NCBI GenBank assembly: GCA_965228895.1
Contig: OZ245842.1
Coordinates: 5,152,001-5,216,000 of the forward strand
Reading direction: 5' to 3'
Length of the DNA: 64,000 bases
DNA from: Alphaproteobacteria bacterium
Lineage (GTDB): Bacteria > Pseudomonadota > Alphaproteobacteria > SP197
A program made the translations under genes and the position numbers. This document shows, piece after piece, positions 23,308-37,584 of this stretch. The notes beneath the pieces were generated by a model. It saw only the letters and a list, made by a program, of their open reading frames with translations, had not been told where the DNA came from and did not search any database. Each line of letters begins with the position of its first letter. Positions within the stretch are counted from its first letter, which is position 1.

Positions 23308-25185
23308 ATGGCGACAACGCAAGGTAAACACGGTGACCGCCGCTTGGAGCCTTTGGCGGCCGTTACGGGCAGCGCTTCCTCGGTTCTGGGGATGTCTGTC
23401 TCGGCTTGGCGTCTGCTCGAACCGGGCGAGAAGGTAGCGACGACGTTCATTCTGATCGCATCCGTGATTTCGTCGGCGGTCGAACTGGCGGCACTGTCGA
23501 CGGCTGTGCCTTTTGTGGGATTGTTGGTCGACCCAGACTCGCTGGATCGCTTTCCCTTGATCGGCGAGTTTTTTGCGATGTTGGGTCTGTCGCTCGACAA
23601 CGATGCGGTTCTGCTGGCAGGTGTGCTCGTTATCGCAAGTTTGACAGTCGCCTTTCTGTTCCGCACGGCCATCTTCTTCGCGGTCGAGCGCTTTAGTGCA
23701 CGCTTTGCTAATCGGTTGGTCGACGACCTCATCCGAGGCTGCCTATTTGGCCCCTATGCGTGGCTGCGTACGCAGAACGGCGCGCTGCTGGCGCAGCGCC
23801 TGTCAATCGATGCTTCTTCTGTGGGCCATGGACTTCTGTCGAGCATCCTCGATCTGTCCTATAGCCTGTTCATTCTCATCATCGGCATTGTCGTCGTTGT
23901 CACGGCGTCTTCGTGGATGACGATCGTCGTTTTGGGTGTGTTTGCGGTCATTGTCGCCATTGCATTGTCGGTTTTGAACCCGCTTTCCGCCCGCCTGTCA
24001 TCCAAACAGCGACTGCATAACATCCGCAGCATGCAGGAAGGAATCGAGGCGCTTGAAGGGTCGAAGGTTCTGCGTGTCACCGGTACCGAAGGCTATTTCG
24101 TGAGGCGGTTTGTCGGCAGTTGGGGTTTGGCAAACTACGCGCGCATGAACCTCAATCTCGTCAACAAGCTAATCCCGACGACAATCCTTCTGATCGGTCA
24201 GATTGGCATGCTGACATTGGCGATGTCGCTCTTTGCGCTCGACTTACCCAATGAGCTCATCGTTACGCAGCTCACGTTTATTCTCTTGGTTCTTGTCCGC
24301 GTATTGCCTGCGGTGTCGTCCATAAGCGGATCGGTCAATCGCCTGGTCAAGCTTGAGCCTTTCTTCCGTGGATATGCTGAGCTACGCGAGCAGGTCCTGT
24401 CCTGGGGATCACAAGACGAACGAGAGGCGAAGCCGGGACGCCCGGTCGATCTGTCGTGGAGCACACTGACATTTGACAATGTTGAGTTTGGTTTTGCTGA
24501 TTCCGATCGTGTGCAGCTCAAGGCCATTTCGTTTTCGCTTCAGTATGGGCAGCACTATGGCTTTGTCGGGCCGTCCGGCGCCGGAAAGAGCACGTTGCTC
24601 GATATTCTACTCGGCCTTCTGGAGCCGACGAACGGGCGTGTTTTGCTCGACCAGCAACCGCTGCAGGGACGTTGCCGTGCGGCATGGCTTGCGGCGATCG
24701 GTTACGTGCCGCAGGAGCCGTTTATCATCGATGACTCGCTTCGCCGAAATGTCGCGTTCGGCATCGACGACGCCGATGTCAGCGATGACAAGATATGGAA
24801 AGCCCTTGAGCTTGCCGAACTTGCGAGCCTCGTGCGCGATTGGCCCGATGGCCTTGCGACGTCACTGGGAGACGGCGGGGCGAGGCTGTCCGGTGGCCAG
24901 CGCCAGAGGGTTGCCATTGCCCGCGCCCTCTATTTCGATCCCCAGATCCTGGTCTTTGACGAGGCGACGAGCGCGCTCGATCTTCCGACCGAAAACGCCA
25001 TCCGAAAAACGATCGCAAAGCTGAGCGGCCAGCGCACCACGGTCACGATTACCCACCGGCTTGCAACGCTTTCCGACTGTGATCGCATCTTTATCTTGGT
25101 CGATGGCGAGATATCGGCATCCGGCACATTTGAACAGCTGTCGCGCGAAAATCGGTCCTTTCAATTGTTGTCGAACTCACCATGA
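23308..25185 (+). CDS. PglK/MsbA-type fused ABC transporter (lipid-linked glycan flippase candidate)
   Basis: N-terminal TM domain; Walker A 'GPSGAGKST', 'GYVPQ', signature 'LSGGQRQR', Walker B 'LVFDEATSALD', 'THRL'. Confidence 0.92.
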   Translation: MATTQGKHGDRRLEPLAAVTGSASSVLGMSVSAWRLLEPGEKVATTFILIASVISSAVELAALSTAVPFVGLLVDPDSLDRFPLIGEFFAMLGLSLDNDAVLLAGVLVIASLTVAFLFRTAIFFAVERFSARFANRLVDDLIRGCLFGPYAWLRTQNGALLAQRLSIDASSVGHGLLSSILDLSYSLFILIIGIVVVVTASSWMTIVVLGVFAVIVAIALSVLNPLSARLSSKQRLHNIRSMQEGIEALEGSKVLRVTGTEGYFVRRFVGSWGLANYARMNLNLVNKLIPTTILLIGQIGMLTLAMSLFALDLPNELIVTQLTFILLVLVRVLPAVSSISGSVNRLVKLEPFFRGYAELREQVLSWGSQDEREAKPGRPVDLSWSTLTFDNVEFGFADSDRVQLKAISFSLQYGQHYGFVGPSGAGKSTLLDILLGLLEPTNGRVLLDQQPLQGRCRAAWLAAIGYVPQEPFIIDDSLRRNVAFGIDDADVSDDKIWKALELAELASLVRDWPDGLATSLGDGGARLSGGQRQRVAIARALYFDPQILVFDEATSALDLPTENAIRKTIAKLSGQRTTVTITHRLATLSDCDRIFILVDGEISASGTFEQLSRENRSFQLLSNSP

Positions 25186-27506
25186 ACGTCGCGACAATCG
25201 AGTTTGGCACCAAGGGAGAGACATTGGCCCGTCTGGCCCCCGTCGTGTCCGACGCCAAGTTCTGCGACCAGTTGCTTTTTAGTGTGGCCTGTTGGCGGGC
25301 GGATCAGCCGAACTGGGTTGCGCGTGTCCTTTCGATGTTTGGCGACAAACTTCTCGTCGTTCGATCAAGCAGCCTCGCAGAAGATGGCCTCGCAGCGTCG
25401 ATGGCTGGTGTTTTTGTAAGTGTCGTGTCCGTTGAGTCGAATGAGGACGCTATCATTCAGGCGGTCGAACGCGTGATTGACAGTTATGGTACAGGGCCCG
25501 CTGAGAATCAGGTCCTGATACAACCCATGGTCGACGGCGTTGAAATTTCCGGTGTCGTCGTGACCCGAGAGCTGACCACCGGCGGCCCCTACTACGTCAT
25601 CAACTATGATGACTTCTCGGGCCGCACCGATACGGTGACGAGTGGTGCGGAAAGCAAGACACTTCTCATCCACCACTCGTCCACGGCTGATCTCCATTCA
25701 CCGAGGTTCTCGCGCCTGATCAGGATCGTCGAGACACTTCAACGTGTTTGCTGTAACGACCTTCTGGATATCGAGTTCTGTATCGCAGGCGATGACGTCT
25801 ACATATTGCAAGTGCGCCCGTTGACGATGCAGGCACGCTGGCGCGCCGCCCCAGACGACAAGGTTTCCGAGAGCCTGAACGGCATCAGGCAACTCATTGG
25901 CGGACGTGCCGCCGGGACCGGCCCGATCGTCGGCGATAGTCCTGTCTACAGTGACATGGCGGACTGGAATCCGGCGGAAATGATCGGCCAAACGCCGCGA
26001 CCTCTGGCCATGTCTCTTTACCGCTATCTGATTACAGATCAAATTTGGTGCACGGCCCGCCAAGCGATGGGATATCGGCAGTTTGCGCCCGAACCGCTTC
26101 TCGTTTCACTGGGCGGCCGGCCCTATATCGATGTCCGTCTAAGCCTGAACTCGCTTCTGCCCGAAGGGCTTGATCGCGGTACCGCCGATGCGATTGTGAC
26201 GAGCCAGCTTGCCATGTTGCGGGAACGCCGTGACCTCCATGACAAGTTTGAGTTCGAGGTCGCCGTCTCCAGTCTCGATTTCATGTTCCACGAAAAGGTG
26301 AGTGTGCTCAGATCCGAGGGACTTGGCGCCGTCCAGCTTGACGATCTGGAAGACCGCCTACGAAACCTGACCAACATGTGCCTGGCAACCCGGCGGGGCG
26401 AGCTTCAGCGTCTCGTCGCGCTGACAAACCGTCTTCACGATGGCATCGACGACGGCCTTGCGCCGAAAGATCGCGCCGCGCAGTTGCTCGACAACTGCCG
26501 CGACTTCGGAACCTATCCTTTCTCCATTGTTGCCAGGCATGCATTCATCGCCATGGCGTTTGTCAAAGCGATGGTGGCGCGTGGCGCCGTCGACCCGTCG
26601 TCGACGGCCCACCTGATGGGTGGCATTCACACTGTCGCTGCGACCATTGTCGAGGGCATGCACGACGTTTCAACCGGCGCCATGGCGCTCGATCAGTTCC
26701 TGGCGTTTTGCGGTCACTTGCGGCCAGGTACCTATGACATTCTGTCGCCGCGTTACGACGCCGCACCCGAGCTCTATTTGAAGGACAGCATTGCTGAGCC
26801 GGCACCGGTTGAGCCGTTCATGTGGTCCAGTGAGGAAGAACGGGTCCTGAAAGGCCTGCTCGACGAAAACCGTTTGGACATCGATCCAAAGGGGCTAATG
26901 GATTACATCGAACAAAGCGTTGTGGGTCGAGAGCAGGTCAAGTTTGATTTCACGCGCAACATTTCAGAGTCTCTCGAAAACATCGCCCAGTGGGGTGAGA
27001 CCCTGGGGCTCAGTCGTGATGATCTGTCGTTTCTCTCCATCGATACGATTCTTGGCAGCACGGTTGGAGATCCCGGCCTCCTGAGAGATCTGGTCGCTCA
27101 CCAGCGCGAGGAGCATGCTGTAACGCTGACGGCGCGGTTGCCGGAAGTCGTTACCGGCATCGACGATATTGGTGTCGTTCGCATGCCGCTCGGCAAGCCG
27201 ACATTCGTCACGCAGCAGGTGGTGACGGCACGTTTGGTCGACTTGGAGCGCGACGGTGCCGACAATCTGCAGGGCGCTATCGTGCTGATCGAAGCGGCTG
27301 ATCCGGGGTATGACTGGATTTTGTCCCACGGCGTTGCGGCGTTGGTCACAAAGTTCGGCGGTGCCAACTCTCACATTGCCATTCGGTGTTCGGAGTTCGA
27401 TCTGCCGGCAGCAATTGGCTGCGGCGAACGTCTGTTTGATGCGTTGCGGGTTGGTACGGTGATCGAGTTGGATTGTGCCACTCGTTCCCTGCGAGCTATC
27501 GCATGA
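25182..27506 (+). CDS. L-glutamine kinase (Cj1418-like; PEP-utilising swivel-His domain)
   Basis: 774 aa; 'GTKGETL', 'VRSSS..ED', 'LIQPMV', 'DIEF', 'LQVRPL', 'DWNPAEMIG', 'GHLRPGTYDI', C-terminal 'ADPGYDW...GGANSHIAIR'. Confidence 0.85.
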   Translation: MNVATIEFGTKGETLARLAPVVSDAKFCDQLLFSVACWRADQPNWVARVLSMFGDKLLVVRSSSLAEDGLAASMAGVFVSVVSVESNEDAIIQAVERVIDSYGTGPAENQVLIQPMVDGVEISGVVVTRELTTGGPYYVINYDDFSGRTDTVTSGAESKTLLIHHSSTADLHSPRFSRLIRIVETLQRVCCNDLLDIEFCIAGDDVYILQVRPLTMQARWRAAPDDKVSESLNGIRQLIGGRAAGTGPIVGDSPVYSDMADWNPAEMIGQTPRPLAMSLYRYLITDQIWCTARQAMGYRQFAPEPLLVSLGGRPYIDVRLSLNSLLPEGLDRGTADAIVTSQLAMLRERRDLHDKFEFEVAVSSLDFMFHEKVSVLRSEGLGAVQLDDLEDRLRNLTNMCLATRRGELQRLVALTNRLHDGIDDGLAPKDRAAQLLDNCRDFGTYPFSIVARHAFIAMAFVKAMVARGAVDPSSTAHLMGGIHTVAATIVEGMHDVSTGAMALDQFLAFCGHLRPGTYDILSPRYDAAPELYLKDSIAEPAPVEPFMWSSEEERVLKGLLDENRLDIDPKGLMDYIEQSVVGREQVKFDFTRNISESLENIAQWGETLGLSRDDLSFLSIDTILGSTVGDPGLLRDLVAHQREEHAVTLTARLPEVVTGIDDIGVVRMPLGKPTFVTQQVVTARLVDLERDGADNLQGAIVLIEAADPGYDWILSHGVAALVTKFGGANSHIAIRCSEFDLPAAIGCGERLFDALRVGTVIELDCATRSLRAIA

Positions 27507-28195
27507 CGATGCCGCCGCGTTTTGCCGTTTCGATGCGTGTTCAATCGGCGGTCGGTTACTACGAACCGCGCGACGCGATTAGTCATGATTGGCTTGATCA
27601 GATCCGTGCCTGGGGTGGCTCGCCGCTACCGGTCCCTAATCTGGAGAAGCACGTCGACGTCTGGCTCGCCGATTTGAAGCCTGCTGTTTTGATTTTGACC
27701 GGTGGCAACGATGTCATCCTTCGCAATGACCAGCCTGACGATCGCTCACCGGTACGCGATGCCACGGAGTTTGCTTCTATCGATTGGGCGCGCCGCCACG
27801 ATGTGCCGATCTTTGCGACCTGCCGCGGCCTCCACGTGTTGAACCAGTATTTTGGCGGCAGCGTCCATGACATTTCCAACGCCGGCAGTCACGTTGCACG
27901 AGATCACGATGTGCGACTTTTTCCGCCGCTCTCAACGCTCGCCGGTGCTGACACTGTGACCGTAAACTCGTTTCACAACCTGGGCATCGGCGAGGACGAA
28001 GTCGGTGACGGTCTGACCATTTGTGCGATGTCGCAAGCCGACGGCCTCGTAGAAGCCGTGGTTCATGACAGTGAACCGATTGCCGCACTTCAATGGCACC
28101 CCGAGCGACGGCGAGGGGACAAAATCGGTGTCGATGACACGTTGTTTTGTCGCCTGTCGTCCGAGGGGGCATTCTGGAGGGATGCGATCGTATGA
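27503..28195 (+). CDS. gamma-glutamyl-CDP-amidate hydrolase (Cj1417-like; peptidase C26 / class I GATase)
   Basis: 'ILTGGND', nucleophile 'TCRGL', 'VNSFHN', 'QWHPER'; follows the glutamine kinase. Confidence 0.82.
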   Translation: MTMPPRFAVSMRVQSAVGYYEPRDAISHDWLDQIRAWGGSPLPVPNLEKHVDVWLADLKPAVLILTGGNDVILRNDQPDDRSPVRDATEFASIDWARRHDVPIFATCRGLHVLNQYFGGSVHDISNAGSHVARDHDVRLFPPLSTLAGADTVTVNSFHNLGIGEDEVGDGLTICAMSQADGLVEAVVHDSEPIAALQWHPERRRGDKIGVDDTLFCRLSSEGAFWRDAIV

Positions 28196-28992
28196 AGGCT
28201 CTTATTGTTGCGGCGGGCCGGGGATCGCGTCTTGGCGACCTCAGCGACCAAACGCCGAAGTGCCTCACGCCTTTTGCCGGGTCGCGCTTGTTGGATATGC
28301 AACTGGGTGTTCTGCGTGGTGCCGGTCTCGACAATATACACTTGGTCAGAGGTTACCTCGGCGAACAGTTGGATGGATTGGGCCTCAGCCTGTGGGACAA
28401 TCCCGATTGGGCCTCGACAAACATGGTGGCGTCGATGCTGTGCGCCCGCCCGTTGCTCGAGGAGGACGATGACCTGATCGTGGCCTATGGCGACATCGTC
28501 TACGAGCGTCGCGTTTTGCAGGCGCTCTTGAACGATAGGAGCGGCGCCGGAGTTGTCGTCGACCGAAAGTGGCTCGATCTATGGAACCTGCGGAGCGATT
28601 CGCCGCTGGCGGATGCGGAAAGCCTGCGACTTGATCAGGCCGGCAACATCATCGACATCGGCAAGAAGGTCTCCGGTCTTGAGGAAATCGAGGCCCAGTA
28701 TATCGGCCTGATGCGATTCTCCGCCGACACCCGGTCTCAGCTGCTTGGCCTGCTTGATCAGGCGCAAGGGACGACCGACGGCGTCAACGGTAAGCCTGTC
28801 GAAAACTGCTACATGACCGACCTGCTTCAGGCCTATGTCGACATCGGTGGCCTTCTTCATGCGGTGCCGATAGACGGCGGCTGGCTCGAATTCGATACGG
28901 CCGACGATATTGCCCGCTATGCTGAACAGATACGCGGCGGATCCATGGCAAGTTACTGTGATGTCGAGACGTTGGCCGCAGAACAGGCATGA
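28192..28992 (+). CDS. CTP:phosphoglutamine cytidylyltransferase (Cj1416/LicC-like)
   Basis: 'AAGRGSRL', 'PKCL', 'TNMVASM', 'YGDIVY', 'ESL', 'QYIGL', 'WLEFDT..D'. Confidence 0.85.
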   Translation: MKALIVAAGRGSRLGDLSDQTPKCLTPFAGSRLLDMQLGVLRGAGLDNIHLVRGYLGEQLDGLGLSLWDNPDWASTNMVASMLCARPLLEEDDDLIVAYGDIVYERRVLQALLNDRSGAGVVVDRKWLDLWNLRSDSPLADAESLRLDQAGNIIDIGKKVSGLEEIEAQYIGLMRFSADTRSQLLGLLDQAQGTTDGVNGKPVENCYMTDLLQAYVDIGGLLHAVPIDGGWLEFDTADDIARYAEQIRGGSMASYCDVETLAAEQA

Positions 28993-29011: not shown

Positions 29012-30250
29012 TTGGCGGGACTGATTGAAGGTGTGGCGATCGCCGTTGTCGTGCTTGTCGTCGTGGAAGCGACGACGTGGCTCGCGGTGTTTCGATTCCG
29101 TCGCGGATTTCCCTGGCTCATTACGCCTCGGGATATCGAGCCGACGATCGATCGGGAGGTCGTTCAGAAGTACGCCCGCGTCAGCTTCGATGCCGATCTC
29201 GGCTGGTGCCGGAAACCGGGAACCCGTGGCGTCGACTCGTCACCCGAAGGTGATGCCAGCTTTTCGATTGATCAGAATGGCGCCCGAAGGAACCCTGAAT
29301 TTGAGGGCGCGGAACCTTATGTCGCAGTCTACGGTGATTCCTACGCCTTTTGTCGCTTGGTCAACGACAACGAAACATGGCCGCATCGATTGTCCGTCAT
29401 GCTCCAGCGCAATGTCGGCAACTTCGGCGTTGGCAATTACGGCTTGGATCAGGCGCTGCTTCGCTATGAGCGCGAAGCCGCAGACCTGGCTGCGCGCGTC
29501 GTCATTCTGGCAGTTGTGCCAGAAACGGTGGCCAGGGTTCACTCCTATTGGAAGCACTATTTCGAGTACGGCAACACGCTGGCGTTCAAGCCCATGTTTG
29601 TGTTGAAGGACGATGACTTGGACCATCTTGCGCCTGCGGTTTCGTGTGCCGAGGACATTGTCGAGCCGACACGCTGGCGCGACAACGTTCGGCGCCTTGA
29701 CCGGTTTTACAAGGAGAAGTTCCTGCCTGACGTGATCCGTTTCCCCGCCATTGTCTCGATCCTCGGACGGTTTTCGCGACATGGGCGCATTCTAGGGATT
29801 CTGCTGCGGGGTGCCTTGTTCGGTCATTCCCAAGATGCGCGTCGGCGTGCCTTTGATGTTGTTCTCGACGAGAACCACAGGCATCAATGTCGCTTGTTCG
29901 CCGATTCCCACGCAACCAAACTCCTGACGTTGATTACCCGGCGCTTTGCTGATGTTTGCGAGGCTCACGGTTCGATACCCAGATTGGTAATCATCCCGCA
30001 ACCCCGCGACTTGAAGGATTACGTGGACCAGAGATGCGCCCACGAGAGTTTCCTGCGAGGTCTAAGCGATGTCGTGCCGGTGCTTGATCTTACGGCGACG
30101 CTTGCGCGCGAGGGCGACCGCATTGCGATATACAAGGAGGGAAATCTGGGCCCCCACACCAGCGCCGCCGCCAACGATGTAATCGCCTCTGAGATCTACC
30201 AATGGCTCGATGGTGACGGATTGCTTTCAGCCCAGGCAAACGGTTCATAA
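29012..30250 (+). CDS. Membrane-anchored SGNH/GDSL hydrolase-family protein
   Basis: N-terminal TM; block I 'YGDSYAF', 'NFGVGNYGLDQ', C-terminal 'GPHTSAAAN'. Start uncertain (28961, 29012 or 29033). Confidence 0.75.
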   Translation: MAGLIEGVAIAVVVLVVVEATTWLAVFRFRRGFPWLITPRDIEPTIDREVVQKYARVSFDADLGWCRKPGTRGVDSSPEGDASFSIDQNGARRNPEFEGAEPYVAVYGDSYAFCRLVNDNETWPHRLSVMLQRNVGNFGVGNYGLDQALLRYEREAADLAARVVILAVVPETVARVHSYWKHYFEYGNTLAFKPMFVLKDDDLDHLAPAVSCAEDIVEPTRWRDNVRRLDRFYKEKFLPDVIRFPAIVSILGRFSRHGRILGILLRGALFGHSQDARRRAFDVVLDENHRHQCRLFADSHATKLLTLITRRFADVCEAHGSIPRLVIIPQPRDLKDYVDQRCAHESFLRGLSDVVPVLDLTATLAREGDRIAIYKEGNLGPHTSAAANDVIASEIYQWLDGDGLLSAQANGS

Positions 30251-30253
30251 TGG

Positions 30254-32086
30254 ATGGGCGTTAACGGCATGGCGACCAGCAACACACGCCTCGCGCTTTC
30301 GAAGTTCAAGGAATTTTGTCGCAACGCGCTTGTCCCACCGGCGATATGGAGCTGGCTTGCCGCATCGGCGCAGGCGCTGCGTCGCAGGACAAAACCGGAC
30401 CATAAGAGCAAGACCCAGTTTCCCTATGTCTGGGACGGCGACGCGTTTGAACTCAAGCATGCCCTGCGTCACATCGAACTTACGGATGAAGTACCGGCGG
30501 TCGGCATCACGCGAGGCCGCGATACGCGGCCTTCGGTCGAGATCTTCAAAGGACGAGGCGTGACACTTGGTCCTTTTCCTGCCGACACGAAGTCGGTGGC
30601 GTTGGCGGTCGCGCAAGACAGAATGGATCTTCCCTACAGCGACTTGACCGTGATGCTCAACGGACAGGTGGTGACGGAGATCAAGGGGTCGCTGATTGCC
30701 GAAACCTGGAACAACTTCCGGCTGCCGATTGCTGATCCATTAAGCGCTGTAACGCTGGAGCTGACCTGGACCGGAGAGCGTCTGTTCCTGTCGGAGCCGG
30801 TGCCTGAACGCGGCATGTCGACAAGCGACAGTCAGAGGCCGAACTTCATCGTGTTGGTGCTCGATTCAATGGTTCCGGAAACTGTCGGCAGTATGTCGGG
30901 CGCTTCGCCAGACGAGTCGTTCACGCCGCACATTGATCGCTATTTCCGCGACGGCCGTCTCTACACGAACGCCTATAGCCAGAGCGAATACACCATGCCT
31001 TCGCTCGCCACCATGATGACGGGGCTCTATCCCATTCAACATGGTGTTTTTACCCATGATCGATGCCAGCGCACTATTCCGCCGCAAACGCCAACGTTGG
31101 CGGAGTTTCTGCAAGAGGCGGGTTATCGCACATTCTGCTATTCGACCGGCCGCCGGTTTGTGCCGCCCTATGGACACTACCGCGGGTTCGAGCGGTTTCA
31201 TTTTCACAATCAAAGCCTGACGCTTACTTCCGACACGGTCGTCGACCGGGCCATGGAGTTTATCGAAACACATAAGAGCTCGCCGACATTCTGTTTTCTC
31301 CACATCATCGATCCGCATCCCCCGTTTGCGCTGCCGACATACTTCTCCGAGCTGAACTCGGGCGCCATGCGATGGGGCGACAGCCGCAGCCTCTACGACG
31401 CCTTCAAGCTGCATCGCGACAGCCGCGAACGTGTCGCCGAACTGCGAGAAATGGAACGGGTTATGGTGCGAAACCTGGATTTCATTCTCGGCAAGCTGTT
31501 CGCCTATCTGGAGCGCGAAGGGCTGGACGAGAAGACACACGTCATGATTCTCGCCGATCACGGTCGCGAATACATGAAGGGTTCGCCGCTGCTGACACGG
31601 CGTTTGACACATATCCCGTTTCTGCTTTCCGGCCCGGGCGTCAGCTCGGGGATGTGTGACAAATTTATTGAGCCGCCGGTGGACCTCTACCCTTCAATCG
31701 CAGCATTGTCGGGTCTTGCGCCGCCGCCTCATCTCGCTGGGCGCGATGTTGTCGATCCGAAAGCCGGTTACCGTGAGGTCTGCCTCTCTGAATCGTTGTT
31801 CCGTTTCAGCGGCGAAATCGCTTTGCGTACAGACGACCGGATCTATGCGCTGCGTTTTCCGTTGGATGATTACGAAGGCAAAGGTGACCTTGACGCTCCG
31901 GAAGGCGAATGGCTCTTCCGTCGCGACCCCGTAACCAAGGACGAAGCAAGCGAGGAAAATCTGATCGACAGCGAACCTGAGCGCGTCGACGAGTTTCGTC
32001 GCCTGGCGCGTACACACTATGACGGCATCGATAGGTATTTCTCGAACGACAACGTGATCGCATCAACAAGGGAGTACCCGAGATAG
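30254..32086 (+). CDS. Sulfatase-like / alkaline-phosphatase-superfamily hydrolase-transferase with non-canonical nucleophile motif
   Basis: 'PNFIVLVLDS', 'TPHID', 'YTMPSLATMMTGLYP', 'HIIDPHPP', 'ADHG', 'HIPF'; lacks C/SxPxR. Confidence 0.8.
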   Translation: MGVNGMATSNTRLALSKFKEFCRNALVPPAIWSWLAASAQALRRRTKPDHKSKTQFPYVWDGDAFELKHALRHIELTDEVPAVGITRGRDTRPSVEIFKGRGVTLGPFPADTKSVALAVAQDRMDLPYSDLTVMLNGQVVTEIKGSLIAETWNNFRLPIADPLSAVTLELTWTGERLFLSEPVPERGMSTSDSQRPNFIVLVLDSMVPETVGSMSGASPDESFTPHIDRYFRDGRLYTNAYSQSEYTMPSLATMMTGLYPIQHGVFTHDRCQRTIPPQTPTLAEFLQEAGYRTFCYSTGRRFVPPYGHYRGFERFHFHNQSLTLTSDTVVDRAMEFIETHKSSPTFCFLHIIDPHPPFALPTYFSELNSGAMRWGDSRSLYDAFKLHRDSRERVAELREMERVMVRNLDFILGKLFAYLEREGLDEKTHVMILADHGREYMKGSPLLTRRLTHIPFLLSGPGVSSGMCDKFIEPPVDLYPSIAALSGLAPPPHLAGRDVVDPKAGYREVCLSESLFRFSGEIALRTDDRIYALRFPLDDYEGKGDLDAPEGEWLFRRDPVTKDEASEENLIDSEPERVDEFRRLARTHYDGIDRYFSNDNVIASTREYPR

Positions 32087-32111: not shown

Positions 32112-32642
32112 ATGATCATCTGGTTGATCGGCATGTCGGGCGCCGGCAAGACGACCATTGGGCGCGGTGTCTGGCAACGCTGGCGGGTACGCGACCAAGC
32201 CACGTTGTTCTTGGATGGCGATACGTTGCGCGATGTCTGGGGCGACCAGTTGTCTCACGACATCGAGGGACGCGCGCGCAATGCACATCGGATTTCGCAT
32301 TTGTGTCGGATGCTTGATGAACAAGGAATCAATGCCGTCGCAGCGGTCTTGTCGATCTTCCCCGAATGGCAGGCGTGGAACCGGCAGACATTCTCATCCT
32401 ATTATGAGGTGTTCATCGATCTGCCGATGTCCGTGTTGCAGGCGCGTGATCCCAAGGGTATTTACGCCGCCCAAGAGCGTGGCGAAATGACGAATGTCGT
32501 CGGTTGTGACATCCCGTTTCCGCGCCCACCGAAACCTGACTTGATCCTTGATGAACATGACATGTTGGCGCCGCCGGAAGAGCTTGCTGCTCGGATACTG
32601 CGGGAGTCCGGCGTTATGCCCGACGCGCATGGAGCGCCATGA
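32112..32642 (+). CDS. CysC-like kinase, probable cytidine diphosphoramidate 3'-kinase (Cj1415-like)
   Basis: 'GMSGAGKTT', 'LDGD..R', 'RDPKGIY', 'NVVGCDIPF..P'; near Cj1418/17/16 homologs with no cysN/cysD in the window. Confidence 0.8.
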   Translation: MIIWLIGMSGAGKTTIGRGVWQRWRVRDQATLFLDGDTLRDVWGDQLSHDIEGRARNAHRISHLCRMLDEQGINAVAAVLSIFPEWQAWNRQTFSSYYEVFIDLPMSVLQARDPKGIYAAQERGEMTNVVGCDIPFPRPPKPDLILDEHDMLAPPEELAARILRESGVMPDAHGAP

Positions 32643-32681: not shown

Positions 32682-33761
32682 TTGAAAGTAAAAATCTTTG
32701 GAGCCGGCTCGATCGGTAACCATCTGGCACACGCTTCGCGAAGCCTGGATTGGCACGTCGATGTCGTCGACATTGATCCTGCCGCCTTGGCGCGCATGCG
32801 CGAGGAGATCTATCCCGGCCGCTATGGTGCCTGGGATGACGCCATCAGCCAGTTTGACCCACAGGACGCGCCCTCGGACGGTTACGGCCTCATCATCATC
32901 GGTACGCCGCCGGATCACCATGTCGCCTTAGCGCGCCAAGCCATTGCTGAAAAGCCGACCGCCCTGCTGATTGAAAAGCCGCTGTCGACACCCGACCTGG
33001 AAGGCCTGGCGGAACTGCATGCTGAGGCACGCGATGCCGGTGTCGCCGTCTTTACCGGCTACGACCACGTTGTCGGCGAGGCAAGCAGCCAGATGAGCCA
33101 GGCGCTGTCGACGGGATCGCTGGGGGTGCTGCAGACCCTGGATGTCGAGTTTCGGGAGCACTGGGGCGGCATCTTCGCGGCCCATCCCTGGCTCGCCGGT
33201 CCGACCGATACCTATCTGGGTTTTTGGCGGCGTGGCGGCGGCGCCAGCGGTGAACACTCTCATGCTGCCAATCTTTGGCAGCACTTCGCCCACGAAGCGG
33301 GTGAGGGCCACGTGACCGATGTTGCCGCGACGCTCGATTACATCGACGACGATGGCGCCGATTATGACCGGCTATGTCTGTTGAACTTGACCACCGAAAC
33401 CGGATTCACGGGCCGGGTCGTGCAGGACGTCGTGACCAAGCCGGCGCGCAAGTGGGCGCGTGCCCAGGGCAGCGCCGGCGCGGCCGAGTGGCGCTGCGGT
33501 TTCGAGCCGGGCCGCGATGCCTTCGTCCCCGAAGGCGCCGAGCCGACGGTCATTGAGAAGACCCGACCTGACGACTTCATCCGCGAACTCCGTCATATTG
33601 CCGACGCAATGACTGCAAACTCTGCGGCGGCCAGCCCGATTTCGCTGGAACGCGGCCTTGATACGATGCTGGTGGTCGCGGCCGCCCATAAATCTCACGC
33701 TGAACGCCGTGTCGTGCGAATCGATCGTTCGTTCGGCTACGGTCCCGACGCCCTTGTCTGA
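32682..33761 (+). CDS. Gfo/Idh/MocA family oxidoreductase
   Basis: 'FGAGSIG', 'GTPPDHH', 'IEKPL', 'GGGASGEHSH'. Confidence 0.88.
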   Translation: MKVKIFGAGSIGNHLAHASRSLDWHVDVVDIDPAALARMREEIYPGRYGAWDDAISQFDPQDAPSDGYGLIIIGTPPDHHVALARQAIAEKPTALLIEKPLSTPDLEGLAELHAEARDAGVAVFTGYDHVVGEASSQMSQALSTGSLGVLQTLDVEFREHWGGIFAAHPWLAGPTDTYLGFWRRGGGASGEHSHAANLWQHFAHEAGEGHVTDVAATLDYIDDDGADYDRLCLLNLTTETGFTGRVVQDVVTKPARKWARAQGSAGAAEWRCGFEPGRDAFVPEGAEPTVIEKTRPDDFIRELRHIADAMTANSAAASPISLERGLDTMLVVAAAHKSHAERRVVRIDRSFGYGPDALV

Positions 33762-33791
33762 ACTTCACTCTGCCGAAACGAGCCTTTTGCC

Positions 33792-35336
33792 ATGATGCCT
33801 CGCGACGAAACACCGTTTGATTTCAATGACTTGTTCATACTGGACTTGGCCAACAACCACCAGGGTGATGTCGAGCACGGGCGCCGCGTCATCCGCGAGC
33901 ACGGGACGGTCATCGCACGCCATGGCGTGCGCGGCGTCATCAAGTTTCAGTTCCGCGATCTCGATAGTTTCATCCACGTCAGCCATCTGGAGAGCAGCGA
34001 CAACAAACACGTGCCTCGCTTCCTCAGCACGCGGCTCGATCGCGAAGGTTTTCAGGCACTGTTGGACGAGGTTCGCGCTCAAGGCTTGTTGGCGGCTTGT
34101 ACGCCGTTCGACGAAAATTCGGTCGGCGTCATCGAAGACATGGGTTTTGACATCATCAAGATTGCGAGTTGCTCGGCAAAGGATTGGCCGCTTCTGGAGC
34201 GCATAGCCGATTCTGCCCGGCCGGTTATCGCGTCGACCGGCGGGCTGCTGCAGTCCGACATGGATGCGCTGGTCAGTTTCCTCGATCATCGCGGCGTCGA
34301 CTTCGCGCTGATGCACTGCGTTTCCGTCTACCCGACGCCCGATGAGATGTGCCATCTCAACAACATCGCGACGATGGTGGAGCGTTACGGCGGCCGCCCG
34401 GTCGGCTGGTCGACCCACGAGGATCCTGCGGACATCGTGCCCGTCGGGCTTGCTCGGGCAAAGGGCGCACGGCTTTTTGAGCGTCATGTCGGCGTGCCGA
34501 CCGACACGATCAAACTCAATGCCTATTCATCGACACCTGAACAGTGTGATGCCTGGGTCGGCGCGTGGCACAAGGCGGGCGCGTTGTTGGGCGAGGCAGA
34601 ACGTCAACCACCAACCGCCGACGAGGCCGTGGCGATTGCTGGTCTAAGTCGTGGCGTCTTTGCCAGGCATGATCTGGAACCCGGCCACACGGTCACCCGT
34701 GACGACGTCTACTTCGCCTTTCCACTGCCCGCGGGCGGACTGGAAAGCGGTCAGTGGCGTGATGGTGTGGTGACGAAAAGTGCGATTGGCGTCGATGACT
34801 CTCTGGCGCTTGACAAGGTCGAGGTTCCGGATCGCTCTGACGTGCAGGTCTTGAAGCAGGCCGTGCACGAGGTAAAGGGGCTGCTCAACAAAGCGCGCGT
34901 CGAACTGGGCAGCGAGTTCGAGGTCGAGTACTCCCATCACTACGGTCCAGCCAATTTTCGCGAGACCGGCGTCGTCATCGTCAATTGCATCAACCGCGAA
35001 TACTGCAAAAAGGTTCTGATCCAGCTCGCCGGTCAGAAGCACCCGTCGCACTTTCACAAACGCAAGGAAGAGACCTTTCATGTTCTGTGGGGCGAGTTGC
35101 ACAGCGAGTTGGATGGACGGGAACGAACGCTGGGTCCCGGTGATACGCTCCTCGTCCTGCCCGGCGTCTGGCATCGGTTCTGGACCGACACCGGCTGCGT
35201 CTTTGAGGAGATTTCAACGACCCACTACAACAACGACTCGGTCTATCGGGATCCGCAGATCAAGGCCATGGAGCGGTCGGATCGCAAGACCGTGGTCGAC
35301 CACTGGGGTCGGTTCCAGTTGACGGACAGTGCCTAG
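33792..35336 (+). CDS. NeuB-family ulosonate synthase fused to SAF and C-terminal cupin (D-lyxose/mannose isomerase-like)
   Basis: 'DLANNHQG', 'KFQFR', 'TPFDE', 'KIASCS', 'HCVSVYPT', 'GWSTHE', 'FERH'; SAF region; cupin 'HPSHFHKRKEETF...WHRF...EEIST'. Confidence 0.88.
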   Translation: MMPRDETPFDFNDLFILDLANNHQGDVEHGRRVIREHGTVIARHGVRGVIKFQFRDLDSFIHVSHLESSDNKHVPRFLSTRLDREGFQALLDEVRAQGLLAACTPFDENSVGVIEDMGFDIIKIASCSAKDWPLLERIADSARPVIASTGGLLQSDMDALVSFLDHRGVDFALMHCVSVYPTPDEMCHLNNIATMVERYGGRPVGWSTHEDPADIVPVGLARAKGARLFERHVGVPTDTIKLNAYSSTPEQCDAWVGAWHKAGALLGEAERQPPTADEAVAIAGLSRGVFARHDLEPGHTVTRDDVYFAFPLPAGGLESGQWRDGVVTKSAIGVDDSLALDKVEVPDRSDVQVLKQAVHEVKGLLNKARVELGSEFEVEYSHHYGPANFRETGVVIVNCINREYCKKVLIQLAGQKHPSHFHKRKEETFHVLWGELHSELDGRERTLGPGDTLLVLPGVWHRFWTDTGCVFEEISTTHYNNDSVYRDPQIKAMERSDRKTVVDHWGRFQLTDSA

Positions 35337-35344
35337 CCCACGCC

Positions 35345-35983
35345 GTGATCCGTCACCTTGTATTCGATTTTGACGGGACGCTTGTGCCGTCGAACGCCTT
35401 GAAGCGCGATGCCTTTTTCGCCTGCGTCGACCATGTCGAGGGAGCTGCGGCCTTGATACGCAGCATGTTGCTTGTCGACCCGACCCGCGACCGCTACGCG
35501 GTCTTCTCGGAGCTCGCTGAGCACTATCCTGAGTGCGGTGACGCCGACGACTTGGCGTTGGAATACGCAACAATCTGCCACGAACGCATCGTCGCCATGC
35601 TCAAGGACGGTGGACCCGACGAACTTTTTCGATTGCTGCGGGCTAACGGACTGGGACTTCATCTGAGTTCGGGTACGCCGCGCGATGCGTTGGTCGGGAT
35701 CATCCGGGATGCCGGTTGGCAGTCGCTGGTGGACAGTGTCCACGGCGCGCCCACGAGCAAGGCGCAGACATTGCAGGCTTTGATGACGCAACATCGCCTG
35801 GTACCCCAGCAGCTGGCCGTTATCGGCGACGGTGCATCCGACGAGGCCGCGGCCGTAAACGCGGGTTGCCGTTTTCTGCGCGTGGCTGACGATGCCAGCG
35901 ATCTCTACAAGCGCGATGCAGTCGACGCCTTTGCGTTTCTGGCAACGCAGTTGGGGTTGGATCGCTGCGAAACAAGAGTTTGA
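35345..35983 (+). CDS. HAD family phosphatase
   Basis: Motif I 'FDFDGTL', motif II 'SSGTP', motif III 'K', motif IV 'IGDGASD'. Confidence 0.9.
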   Translation: MIRHLVFDFDGTLVPSNALKRDAFFACVDHVEGAAALIRSMLLVDPTRDRYAVFSELAEHYPECGDADDLALEYATICHERIVAMLKDGGPDELFRLLRANGLGLHLSSGTPRDALVGIIRDAGWQSLVDSVHGAPTSKAQTLQALMTQHRLVPQQLAVIGDGASDEAAAVNAGCRFLRVADDASDLYKRDAVDAFAFLATQLGLDRCETRV

Positions 35984-35986
35984 TCA

Positions 35987-36868
35987 GTGATGCCCGGCCC
36001 AGCTGACCTGGCTGCGCGGCTCGTGGCGCCGCTTGGGCGTGACAGCTTCACGTTGCTGCGGTCGGGCGTTCACGATGACCCCGCCATCGACGTTTACATC
36101 AATGAGCAGCGTGACTTTGCCGTGCTCGATCCCATGCCGGTTATGGACTATGGCTCCTACGAGCGGCGCTATGAGAAGCTGGGCCTGAAGACCTATGCCC
36201 GCAGCCTTAGTGGACCTGAGGGACGCCTGAAGAAGATCCGGCATCTCATACCAGAGGGCGGTCGTGCTCTTGAAATTGGCGCGGCGGACGGCTCGTTCCT
36301 GAAACTTGCGAAGCAAGCTTTGCCGGAATGCGCGTTCAGCGCCGTGGAGCCGGACCAGCACACGAAGCCGGCGCGCGATGATCTGCCATGGCTCGTTCAG
36401 TTCGAGACTGTTGGCCATGCGATTGAACAAGGTGTCACGTTCGACCTCGTGATGCTGTTCCACGTGTTCGAGCACGTTTTGGTCCCTGCCGCGTTCTTGG
36501 CTGAGGTGCAGCAGATCCTGGCGCCCGGCGGTGCGCTCTTGATCGAGGTGCCAAGTCTCCACGATCCGCTCTTGTCTCTCTATGAGAACTCAGCCTATCA
36601 AGCCTTCTACTTTCAACGCCAGCACCCCTATGTCTATTCGGCTCCATCGCTTGAGCGCGTGTTGGAGAACGGCGGCTTCACGACCCGCCGCGTCATCTCC
36701 TATCAGCGTTATGGGCTCGAGAACCATTTGCAGTGGCTAGCCAAAGGCAGTCCAGGCGGGAACGAACGCTATCGTGCTCTGTTTGCTGAAAGCGATGCTT
36801 CCTATCGCGCGGCATTGGAGGCGGCCGGCACGACTGACACGGTCATCGTCGAGGCGGTTGTCTCATGA
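35987..36868 (+). CDS. Class I SAM-dependent methyltransferase
   Basis: 'LEIGAADG', 'VEPD', 'FHVFEH', 'LAPGGALLIEVP', 'QRYGLENHLQWL..G.PGG'. Confidence 0.85.
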   Translation: MMPGPADLAARLVAPLGRDSFTLLRSGVHDDPAIDVYINEQRDFAVLDPMPVMDYGSYERRYEKLGLKTYARSLSGPEGRLKKIRHLIPEGGRALEIGAADGSFLKLAKQALPECAFSAVEPDQHTKPARDDLPWLVQFETVGHAIEQGVTFDLVMLFHVFEHVLVPAAFLAEVQQILAPGGALLIEVPSLHDPLLSLYENSAYQAFYFQRQHPYVYSAPSLERVLENGGFTTRRVISYQRYGLENHLQWLAKGSPGGNERYRALFAESDASYRAALEAAGTTDTVIVEAVVS

Positions 36869-37584
36869 CACCCGGTGGTCACCGCGTTCTCGCCGTGTGT
36901 CCGGCACGGGGCGGCAGCAAGGGCATTGCGCTTAAGAACCTGCGTCCTGTCGGCGGCATACCGATGGTAGCGCGTGTCGGCCAGTTGTGCCGTGAGTTGG
37001 ATTGGCTGGATCGCGCCGTGGTGTCGACGGACCATGAGGAGATTGCCTCCGTCGCGGAAGCAAGCGGCCTGTCGGCGCCCTTTCGAAGGCCCGAGGCGCT
37101 ATCCGGCGACCGCATCGGGGACTTGGACGTCCTACATCATGCTCTCACGACATGCGAGGCCGTGGACGACATCGCCTACGACATTGTCGTCATGCTGCAA
37201 CCAACATCACCGCTGCGCCGGGCTGAGCATGTCACGGGCGCCGTTGATGCGCTGGCAGACGGCGACTGGGATGCGTGCTGGACCGTGTCGGAGACTGACT
37301 CCAAGGCGCACCCGCTGAAGCAACTGATCATCGAAAGCGATCAACTCGACTATTACGACGCCGATGGCGCCAACATTGTCGCGCGCCAGCAACTGTCACC
37401 GGTCTATCACCGCAACGGTCTGGCCTATGCCGTGACGCGATCCTGTATCATCGACCAAAAAACGATCATGGGACGTCGAACCAGGGCTCTGGTAACACCC
37501 GGACACTTCGTCAGCATCGACACGGAATACGACATCGCCCTCGTCGAGTTCCTCATGGCGCGGGGACAAGAAGCAAACGTGTGA
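36865..37584 (+). CDS. neuA: Acylneuraminate (CMP-ulosonate) cytidylyltransferase
   Basis: 'PARGGSKGIALKN', 'VSTD', 'RPEALSGD', 'LQPTSPLR', 'RNGLAY', 'SIDTEYD'. Confidence 0.9.
   Translation: MTPGGHRVLAVCPARGGSKGIALKNLRPVGGIPMVARVGQLCRELDWLDRAVVSTDHEEIASVAEASGLSAPFRRPEALSGDRIGDLDVLHHALTTCEAVDDIAYDIVVMLQPTSPLRRAEHVTGAVDALADGDWDACWTVSETDSKAHPLKQLIIESDQLDYYDADGANIVARQQLSPVYHRNGLAYAVTRSCIIDQKTIMGRRTRALVTPGHFVSIDTEYDIALVEFLMARGQEANV

Follow-up and report, generated by a model that had tools for sequence, protein, structure and literature searches.

Within a 64,000-nucleotide stretch of an alphaproteobacterial genome (GenBank assembly GCA_965228895.1, contig OZ245842.1, positions 5,152,001 to 5,216,000 of the forward strand; herein referred to as the window, and its source genome as G000), the open reading frame (ORF) at 30254-32086 (+) encodes a sulfatase-fold protein, P0001. 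We hypothesize that P0001 is a soluble, metal-dependent enzyme that uses a threonine nucleophile to move phosphoramidate from a donor resembling 3'-phosphoadenosine-5'-phosphosulfate (PAPS) to a glycan, as a dedicated part of the cassette in which its gene lies; judged from sequence, we place the probability of this reading at about 45%. The same mechanism had been put forward in an original prediction made from the letters of the window, and we retain it as the best explanation because of the chemistry of the site, the location of the protein together with its operon, the complementary distribution of its family and of sulfotransferase-fold genes, and the gene contexts of sister branches. Much of that prediction survives, namely that P0001 appears to be no formylglycine sulfatase, keeps a predicted metal site, looks cytoplasmic and is linked to donor genes; what it overlooked is a rival candidate, the SGNH-fold protein encoded by the adjacent gene (orf412).

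The attachment of phosphoramidate to sugars is enzymatically unsolved even in Campylobacter; passages of a 2025 paper still assign the methyl phosphoramidate decoration step to future work (PMC12409886), and our literature search returned no paper that connects phosphoramidate transfer with a sulfatase-like enzyme. With a predicted soluble protein, an obvious predicted nucleophile and the donor enzymes in the same operon, the transfer step becomes directly testable. If our reading is true, P0001 would set a precedent in the alkaline-phosphatase superfamily, as the first known transferase there to draw on a cytoplasmic nucleotide donor, and it would offer a reading for the sulfatase-like genes of phosphonate clusters (long noted) and of sulfation clusters (found here); if P0001 is instead a phosphatase acting on a pathway by-product, it would be a modest addition to a known superfamily.

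Active site, fold and predicted location

The translation of P0001 contains L-D-S (residues 203-205), S-E-Y-T-M-P-S-L-A (with T247), L-H-I-I-D-P-H-P-P (349-357) and A-D-H-G (434-437), and all of the metal-ligand motifs named in the original prediction (LDS, HIIDPH and ADHG) are read in it. When phmmer aligns P0001 with solved sulfatases, T247 takes the place of the Cys/Ser that is converted to formylglycine, and L251 that of the Arg in C/S-x-P-x-R, a motif that P0001 does not match (it reads T-M-P-S-L), in keeping with the earlier expectation that formylglycine would not form. Because a Thr is present and the Arg of the motif absent, P0001, as predicted from these alignments, cannot be a formylglycine sulfatase, and the acid/Thr/Asp/His pattern of the metal site is retained in its predicted ligands. 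This chemistry, with a metal-bound Thr and with both formylglycine and the Arg missing, points to phosphoryl-type rather than sulfatase chemistry.

Profile searches place P0001 in a broad family. The Pfam Sulfatase family PF00884, which includes LtaS/EptA-type enzymes, matches residues 196-487 above its gathering score (E 1.3e-33, 117 bits, cut-off 25), and PF01663 (Phosphodiest) scores 49.3 bits against a cut-off of 23, although the best-matching segment is confined to residues 199-267 and to positions 2-64 of the 342 in the profile. NCBIfam gave sub-threshold matches only (NF010322, arylsulfatase, 69.8 bits vs 481; TIGR03417, choline-sulfatase, 46.9 vs 433; PehA likewise), the Pfam search found no sulfotransferase domain (PF00685, PF13469) in P0001, and an ESM Atlas look-up returned only generic sulfatase-family clusters. 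An alternative ATG at 30269 would give a 605-aa form, which is the form stored in the protein collection.

The AlphaFold model of P0001, built on a 17-row alignment (predicted local distance difference test, pLDDT, 81; predicted template modeling score, pTM, 0.84), comprises two low-confidence helices (residues 5-45), a confident beta-sandwich (~60-190) and then the catalytic domain. The model, together with conservation in the family, bears out the earlier claim of an extra N-terminal domain of ~190 aa. Residues 191-609 superpose on S1 sulfatases (Foldseek E ~1e-19; VIA-align Z 30-34, root-mean-square deviation 2.6-3.4, 339-370 residues), and YejM/PbgA, 3lxq and phosphonate monoester hydrolases match at Z 28-29.6 (YejM/PbgA at 28.6-29.6). 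The structural comparison with LtaS, EptA and sulfatases that had been proposed as a check is hence non-discriminating: since sulfatase-like and LtaS/YejM-like relatives all fall within Z 28-34, fold alone cannot separate a hydrolase from a transferase.

The N-terminus carries neither a signal peptide nor a membrane helix by hydropathy (over the first 70 residues, 19-residue Kyte-Doolittle means peak at 0.91), and the same peak stays at or below 1.11 in 16 of 17 family members, the remaining one reaching 1.61; the absence of a signal peptide, already noticed in the original prediction, thus extends to nearly the whole family. P0001 looks cytoplasmic and, because the N-terminus is non-hydrophobic in 16 of the 17 members, nucleotide donors would be within its reach. 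Cytoplasmic location and operon together point to a nucleotide donor.

The P0001 family is tiny. Our search of 5.8 billion clustered proteins gave 65 matches among 8000 scored candidates, 17 of which (P0002-P0018) are full-length relatives (540-616 aa, 36-100% identity, 379-1405 bits, with the next match at 118 bits), so that the family amounts to 17 clusters. The family alignment consists of P0001 and P0003-P0018 (17 rows; P0002, the window's own protein from a later start, was omitted). D204, T247, S250, H350 and H355 are invariant in all 17 rows, conservation is 90% or higher at D435, H436, G437 and K442, and the N-terminal 190 residues are conserved as well, with P57, W60, G62, G145, W152 and G174 invariant. 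A second alignment, to which distant metagenome-locus proteins and TPR-fused "arylsulfatase A-like" proteins were added, reaches down to ~20% identity and again has T247 and D204 invariant (17/17 rows). Because it is invariant in the family and in the distant rows, Thr247 is a character of the clade and no local accident. A quick tree holds the P0001 family together (Shimodaira-Hasegawa-like approximate likelihood ratio test, SH-aLRT, 97) and, separately from the TPR-type proteins, groups it with the sister rows into one clade (18 members, support 86).

Scanning by pattern yielded 3 confirmed loci among 185,579 species genomes and another 10 among metagenomes; of 29 pattern matches in viral contigs, 0 were confirmed. 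Among 41 genomes (G000 and 40 relatives) the full-length family occurs in G000 alone, the next best match scoring 59.5 bits, and a search of 400 further genomes from the phylum (E <= 1e-25) returned none, so that no orphan copy turned up either there or in the 40 relatives.

Gene neighborhoods of relatives and of other cassettes

The tie between P0001 and phosphoramidate-donor genes is supported beyond its close kin. Among the loci of relatives (L001-L013), five with ~70% identity (L001-L005) are syntenic with the window from the ABC transporter gene to orf342. The association of homologs with Cj1418-type genes, on which the original prediction had staked its reading, recurs at 43% identity in L006 (Cj1418-like, Cj1417-like, Cj1416-like and the P0001 relative, followed by the contig end) and at ~25%, in the catalytic domain only, in L013 (ABC exporter, Cj1415-like gene, formyltransferase, methyltransferase, sulfatase-like gene, then Cj1418-like, Cj1417-like and Cj1416-like genes). 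In L037, one of the other Cj1418-like loci described below, a more distant sulfatase-family protein is encoded next to the Cj1418-like gene, with a TagF-like gene nearby; its profile alignment (probability 96%) has Thr at the nucleophile position. The Cj1418-like gene of L037 (8841-11888, minus) encodes a 1015-aa glutamine-kinase homolog extended at its N-terminus by a region similar to the Cj1416-like nucleotidyltransferase (23% over 218 residues, E 2e-7); the locus has a separate Cj1416-like gene as well.

Sister branches lie beside genes for other activated donors. L008 adjoins a divergent, upstream ATP sulfurylase gene; L009 and L010, one protein from two samples, adjoin adenosine-5'-phosphosulfate (APS) kinase; L011 adjoins TauE, APS kinase and ATP sulfurylase; and L012 adjoins a phosphoenolpyruvate (PEP) mutase-cytidylyltransferase fusion, a thiamine-pyrophosphate-dependent decarboxylase and an aminotransferase, an aminoethylphosphonate (AEP) set. 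These PAPS and cytidine-monophosphate (CMP)-phosphonate neighborhoods, together with the complementarity with sulfotransferase-fold genes described below, suggest group transfer on activated anhydrides. Other features of these loci include a B12-binding radical SAM gene after the sulfatase-like gene of L008 (3104-4741) and, in L012 (7854-15683), what looks like a phosphonoglycan set, in which the Thr-type sulfatase-like gene stands between the PEP mutase-cytidylyltransferase fusion and a GT9 gene, with a nucleotidyltransferase gene nearby. A pyruvate-kinase barrel domain is paired with ATP sulfurylase in L011 (12354-14393) and fused to one in L024 (9138-11192), both within glycan clusters.

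We also asked what accompanies Cj1418-like genes elsewhere. The Cj1418-like profile NF004508 scores above its cut-off in 14 of 401 genomes of the phylum (G000 included), and the 15 other loci (L024-L038, being 14 places in 13 other genomes plus the G032 locus) were taken with up to 10 kb per side. A six-frame search with the P0001 profile recovered 13 of 13 control loci (L001-L013) and 0 of these 15. Sulfotransfer_1/3 genes, often TPR-fused, are present in 10 of the 15 (L024, L026, L027, L030, L031, L033, L034, L035, L036 and L038), and the annotated ORFs of L025, L028, L029 and L032 include no sulfotransferase-fold, P0001-family or orf412-type gene. Conversely, neither the window nor L001-L013 has a sulfotransferase-like ORF by profile search, nor does the window by phmmer with 11 cassette-linked sulfotransferase-like proteins (E <= 1). 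This complementary pattern fits displacement of one transferase by another, and since 10 of the 15 other cassettes carry sulfotransferase-fold genes, the P0001 family is a rare alternative and not a general solution outside Campylobacter. The cassette-linked sulfotransferase-fold genes are themselves obvious candidate users of a PAPS-like donor, and they seem unstudied. Directly beside the Cj1418-like gene in L025, L027, L028, L029, L032 and L033 lies a UbiE-like (Methyltransf_11) methyltransferase gene of ~250 aa, likely an O-methylation counterpart.

In the window, the P0001 gene lies within a tight, co-directional operon (table 1), separated by 3 bases from orf412 before it and by 25 bases from the gene after it, which belongs to the APS_kinase family and so agrees with the original placement directly before a Cj1415-like kinase. 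The operon order is Cj1418-like, Cj1417-like, Cj1416-like, SGNH protein, P0001 and Cj1415-like; a canonical APS kinase is encoded elsewhere in the G000 genome. Glycosyltransferase genes also follow the CMP-sugar cytidylyltransferase gene in the downstream run. Third-position guanine-cytosine content is 0.64-0.73 in the central ORFs (8558-37584) as against 0.75-0.85 in the flanks, a Cj1418-like gene scores above the NF004508 cut-off in only 2 of the 41 relatives' genomes (G000 and G032), and the phosphoramidate cassette was not found in two genomes of the same genus; the lower third-position value and the absence from congeners suggest that the cassette was horizontally acquired.

Table 1. Coordinates of P0001, its predicted sites and domains, and the neighboring genes within the window
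Feature	Positions	Strand	Basis
Thr-type sulfatase-fold protein P0001, 610 aa, open frame	30254..32086	+	ORF, Pfam, phmmer, family alignment, model, fold matches
N-terminal helix pair, residues 1-55, low model confidence, too weakly hydrophobic for a membrane span	30254..30418	+	Model, hydropathy
Family-specific beta-sandwich domain, residues ~60-190, pLDDT ~85-94	30431..30823	+	Alignment, model
Alkaline-phosphatase-superfamily catalytic domain with sulfatase-type C-terminal subdomain, residues 191-610	30824..32083	+	Pfam, fold matches
Asp204 codon, predicted metal ligand, invariant	30863..30865	+	Alignments
Thr247 codon, predicted nucleophile at formylglycine position	30992..30994	+	phmmer alignments, two family alignments
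Asp435-His436 codons (ADHG), predicted metal ligands	31556..31561	+	Alignments
Methyltransf_11 methyltransferase upstream of cassette, possible O-methylation step, not kept in L001-L004	22398..23207	+	Pfam, synteny
PglK/MsbA-type ABC exporter, first gene of block conserved with L001-L004	23257..25185	+	Profiles, synteny
Cj1418-like L-glutamine kinase homolog	25182..27506	+	NF004508, 808 bits, cut-off 501
Cj1417-like amidohydrolase (Peptidase_C26/GATase)	27473..28195	+	Weak gamma-glutamyl-CDP-amidate hydrolase match, 78 bits, below cut-off 250
Cj1416-like nucleotidyltransferase (NTP_transf_3)	28147..28992	+	Pfam
orf412 (P0067), predicted membrane-anchored SGNH/GDSL-fold protein, invariant G-D-S	29012..30250	+	Model, fold, hydropathy, genome survey
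Cj1415-like kinase (APS_kinase family)	32112..32642	+	Pfam E 5.6e-30
Ulosonic-acid-type sugar genes co-conserved with cassette: GFO oxidoreductase, NeuB-cupin fusion, HAD phosphatase, Methyltransf_23, CMP-sugar cytidylyltransferase	32682..37584	+	

Positions 1-53543 of the window form one very large glycan island, which also encodes a Wzy_C ligase, a KpsF-like SIS-CBS protein, a NusG/RfaH-like protein, two NeuB-type synthases (one cupin-fused), three CMP-sugar cytidylyltransferases, a HisH/HisF-like pair, two asparagine-synthase-like proteins and at least eight methyltransferases. Farther upstream on the same contig are eight tandem sulfotransferase paralogs (G000:C1:5,021,202-5,028,013, ~125 kb from the window) and a single further sulfotransferase gene (G000:C1:5,096,199-5,096,933, ~55 kb). 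We considered a member of the 5.02-Mb array as the cassette transferase and rejected it: in numbers of 4-11 copies, the array persists in four relatives that have no cassette (G001-G004), and because it is retained where the cassette is absent it is unlikely to serve it.

Proposed mechanism and competing explanations

Campylobacter uses Cj1415-Cj1418 to build CDP-phosphoramidate 3'-phosphate out of glutamine, ATP and CTP, as set out in passages of PMC11800397. The other enzymes of the cassette would likewise make 3'-phospho-cytidine-5'-diphosphoramidate, as Cj1418, Cj1416, Cj1417 and Cj1415 do. A metal-activated Thr247 would then attack the terminal (amidate) phosphorus of this donor, with 3'-phospho-CMP leaving, to give a covalent Thr-O-phosphoramidyl enzyme. 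From there the group may pass to a glycan hydroxyl, perhaps on the ulosonic-acid-type sugar encoded just downstream, while the N-terminal beta-sandwich would hold the acceptor; transfer would precede export by the adjacent ABC transporter, and a methyltransferase may afterwards O-methylate the phosphoramidate group. For P0001 we infer all four of donor, acceptor, covalent intermediate and transfer over hydrolysis. A broader conjecture, which we regard as somewhat doubtful, is that, with the clade whose signature is S-Q-S-E-[YW]-T-x-P-S, the task of the sulfotransferases has been solved a second time by convergence, through mostly cytoplasmic Thr-nucleophile sulfatase-fold enzymes that take the terminal group of PAPS, 3'-phospho-CDP-amidate or CMP-aminoethylphosphonate onto Thr and then hand it to glycans; the accompanying donor genes would accordingly decide whether this one scaffold sulfates, phosphoramidylates or phosphonylates surface sugars.

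Several observations weigh against transfer by P0001. To our knowledge, all characterized Thr-type transferases (EptA, LtaS, OpgB) are membrane-anchored, extracytoplasmic and supplied by lipid donors. The independent support from context is thinner than the number of loci implies: L001/L004 and L002/L003 are near-duplicates, which together with the shared synteny reduces L001-L005 to roughly one clade, with L006, L013 and L037 the cases that count separately; L007 (34% identity) has no cassette gene on its 4.5-kb contig; and the quick tree came with long-branch warnings. The original prediction had P0001 replacing the Campylobacter-type transferases, which fits with the absence of a match to DUF2972 (PF11186), the domain of Cj1421/Cj1422, in P0001 and 17 neighbors (E <= 0.01) and in the genome, the genome search being one without a positive control; such a replacement would not be the general rule outside Campylobacter, given the sulfotransferase-fold genes of most other cassettes. 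An association with APS-kinase-type pathways is equally expected of a 3'-phosphonucleotide phosphatase. Finally, orf412 is, by our analysis, no less cassette-specific than P0001, occurs more widely and may itself be the transferase: its only two homologs in the 401 genomes (E <= 1e-30; G000 and G182, the latter being L036) both lie inside phosphoramidate cassettes, and in L036 (13176-14408) the homolog directly follows the Cj1415-like gene with the P0001 family absent.

Because orf412 is equally pathway-specific and more widespread, it may install the group itself or be an obligatory pathway partner, leaving P0001 another cassette step such as trimming or editing a glycan phospho-group; we judge this unlikely on balance, yet deserving of real weight. 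The 412-aa protein has a hydrophobic N-terminal helix, predicted to be a membrane helix and followed by R-F-R-R, an intact G-D-S that is invariant in its family together with one His, and a confident SGNH model (pLDDT 94.6) that matches GDSL esterases, TesA and the O-acetyltransferase PatB. Its family is far larger than that of P0001 (243 vs 17 matches, many in actinomycetes, Streptomyces among them), and the longest contigs of five P0001 relatives and of orf412 relatives are of equal size (12611, 74439, 12428, 62456 and 13804), which suggests that they share contigs. However, the SGNH enzymes that its fold matches are acyl esterases and acyltransferases, and we know of no phosphoryl-transferring member; orf412 is absent between the Cj1416-like gene and the P0001 relative in L006 and absent within 21 kb in L013, and in L036 a TPR-sulfotransferase gene lies 4 kb upstream as well. 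BLASTP found no similarity between orf412 and two L024 sulfotransferase-like proteins, and a complex prediction for P0001 (56-610) with orf412 (31-412) gave a score of 0.01 and a mark of 0.32, values that have no bearing on binding either way.

That P0001 is instead a phosphomonoesterase that strips the 3'-phosphate off the by-product 3'-phospho-CMP (and off 3'-phosphoadenosine-5'-phosphate in the sister branches), relieving product inhibition as CysQ does in sulfation, strikes us as improbable. Thr paired with a metal site is typical of phosphatases, a 3',5'-bisphosphate nucleotide is what remains of PAPS and of the phosphoramidate donor alike, and APS-kinase-type genes stand beside P0001 or its relatives in the window, L001-L005, L010, L011 and L013. 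Yet a canonical CysQ is already encoded in the genome (276.9 bits, cut-off 228.8), the seven annotated ORFs around the sulfatase-like gene of L012 include no 3'-kinase gene and the pathway there should yield plain CMP, and L037 has no Cj1415-like gene within ~10 kb; moreover, 10 sulfotransferase-bearing cassettes manage without the P0001 family, and a 610-aa protein with a 130-residue beta-sandwich would seem excessive for a nucleotide phosphatase. We consider it very improbable that P0001 is an ordinary hydrolase (a sulfatase, phosphonate monoester hydrolase or phosphodiesterase) with an external or unrelated substrate, placed in the island by chance: its best sequence and fold matches are indeed sulfatases, PehA and phosphonate monoester hydrolases, but the NCBIfam scores are far below cut-off, the formylglycine motif and an export signal are absent, the operon position is tight, and the association recurs at 43% and ~25% identity. 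Hardly credible, despite the YejM/PbgA fold matches, is a role in binding or scaffolding without catalysis, in the manner of the alkaline-phosphatase-fold periplasmic domain of YejM/PbgA, since the nucleophile and the predicted metal ligands vary little or not at all within the family, which would not be expected of a degenerate site.

Comparison with known systems

In Campylobacter jejuni, deletion of Cj1421/Cj1422 abolishes O-methyl phosphoramidate (MeOPN) on GalfNAc and heptose, according to passages of one account (PMC11800397), and another source assigns DUF2972 to the MeOPN transferases of Campylobacter (PMC5808241). P0001 would hold the same presumed place in the pathway, but Cj1421/Cj1422 are unrelated DUF2972 proteins. 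The sulfotransferase-fold genes of other Pseudomonadota cassettes are candidate users of the same donor with a different fold, and they never stand alongside the P0001 family in the loci examined. Uncharacterized sulfatase-like genes accompany AEP clusters, with no function given in the passages that mention them (PMC8942020). L012 is a further case of a sulfatase-family gene in a phosphonate cluster, where the donor would be a CMP-phosphonate and not 3'-phospho-CDP-amidate. A similar remark on a sulfatase-family gene in the Nitrosopumilus methylphosphonate cluster was reportedly made by Metcalf in 2012.

With S1 sulfatases and phosphonate monoester hydrolases (6hr5, 7stt, 5g2t, 2vqr, 2w8s), P0001 has in common the two-subdomain fold (Z 28-34 over 340-370 residues), and, at the same positions in S1 sulfatases, the first Asp, the P-H-x-P His, the D-H-G pair and the following Lys. 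Unlike S1 sulfatases, it has Thr for Cys/Ser, Leu for Arg, Ser for the second Asp and an added N-terminal beta-sandwich, is predicted to be cytoplasmic, and scores far below the curated equivalog cut-offs. EptA/LptA, LtaS and OpgB, which belong to PF00884, use a Thr nucleophile with an acid/Thr/Asp/His metal site, form a covalent phospho-Thr intermediate and transfer the group to envelope glycans; they have multi-span membrane domains and act extracytoplasmically on phospholipid donors. The conserved D204, T247, D435 and H436 of P0001 correspond to this pattern, but unlike these enzymes P0001 has, by prediction, a soluble beta-sandwich in place of a membrane span, and its gene sits among those for a nucleotide donor.

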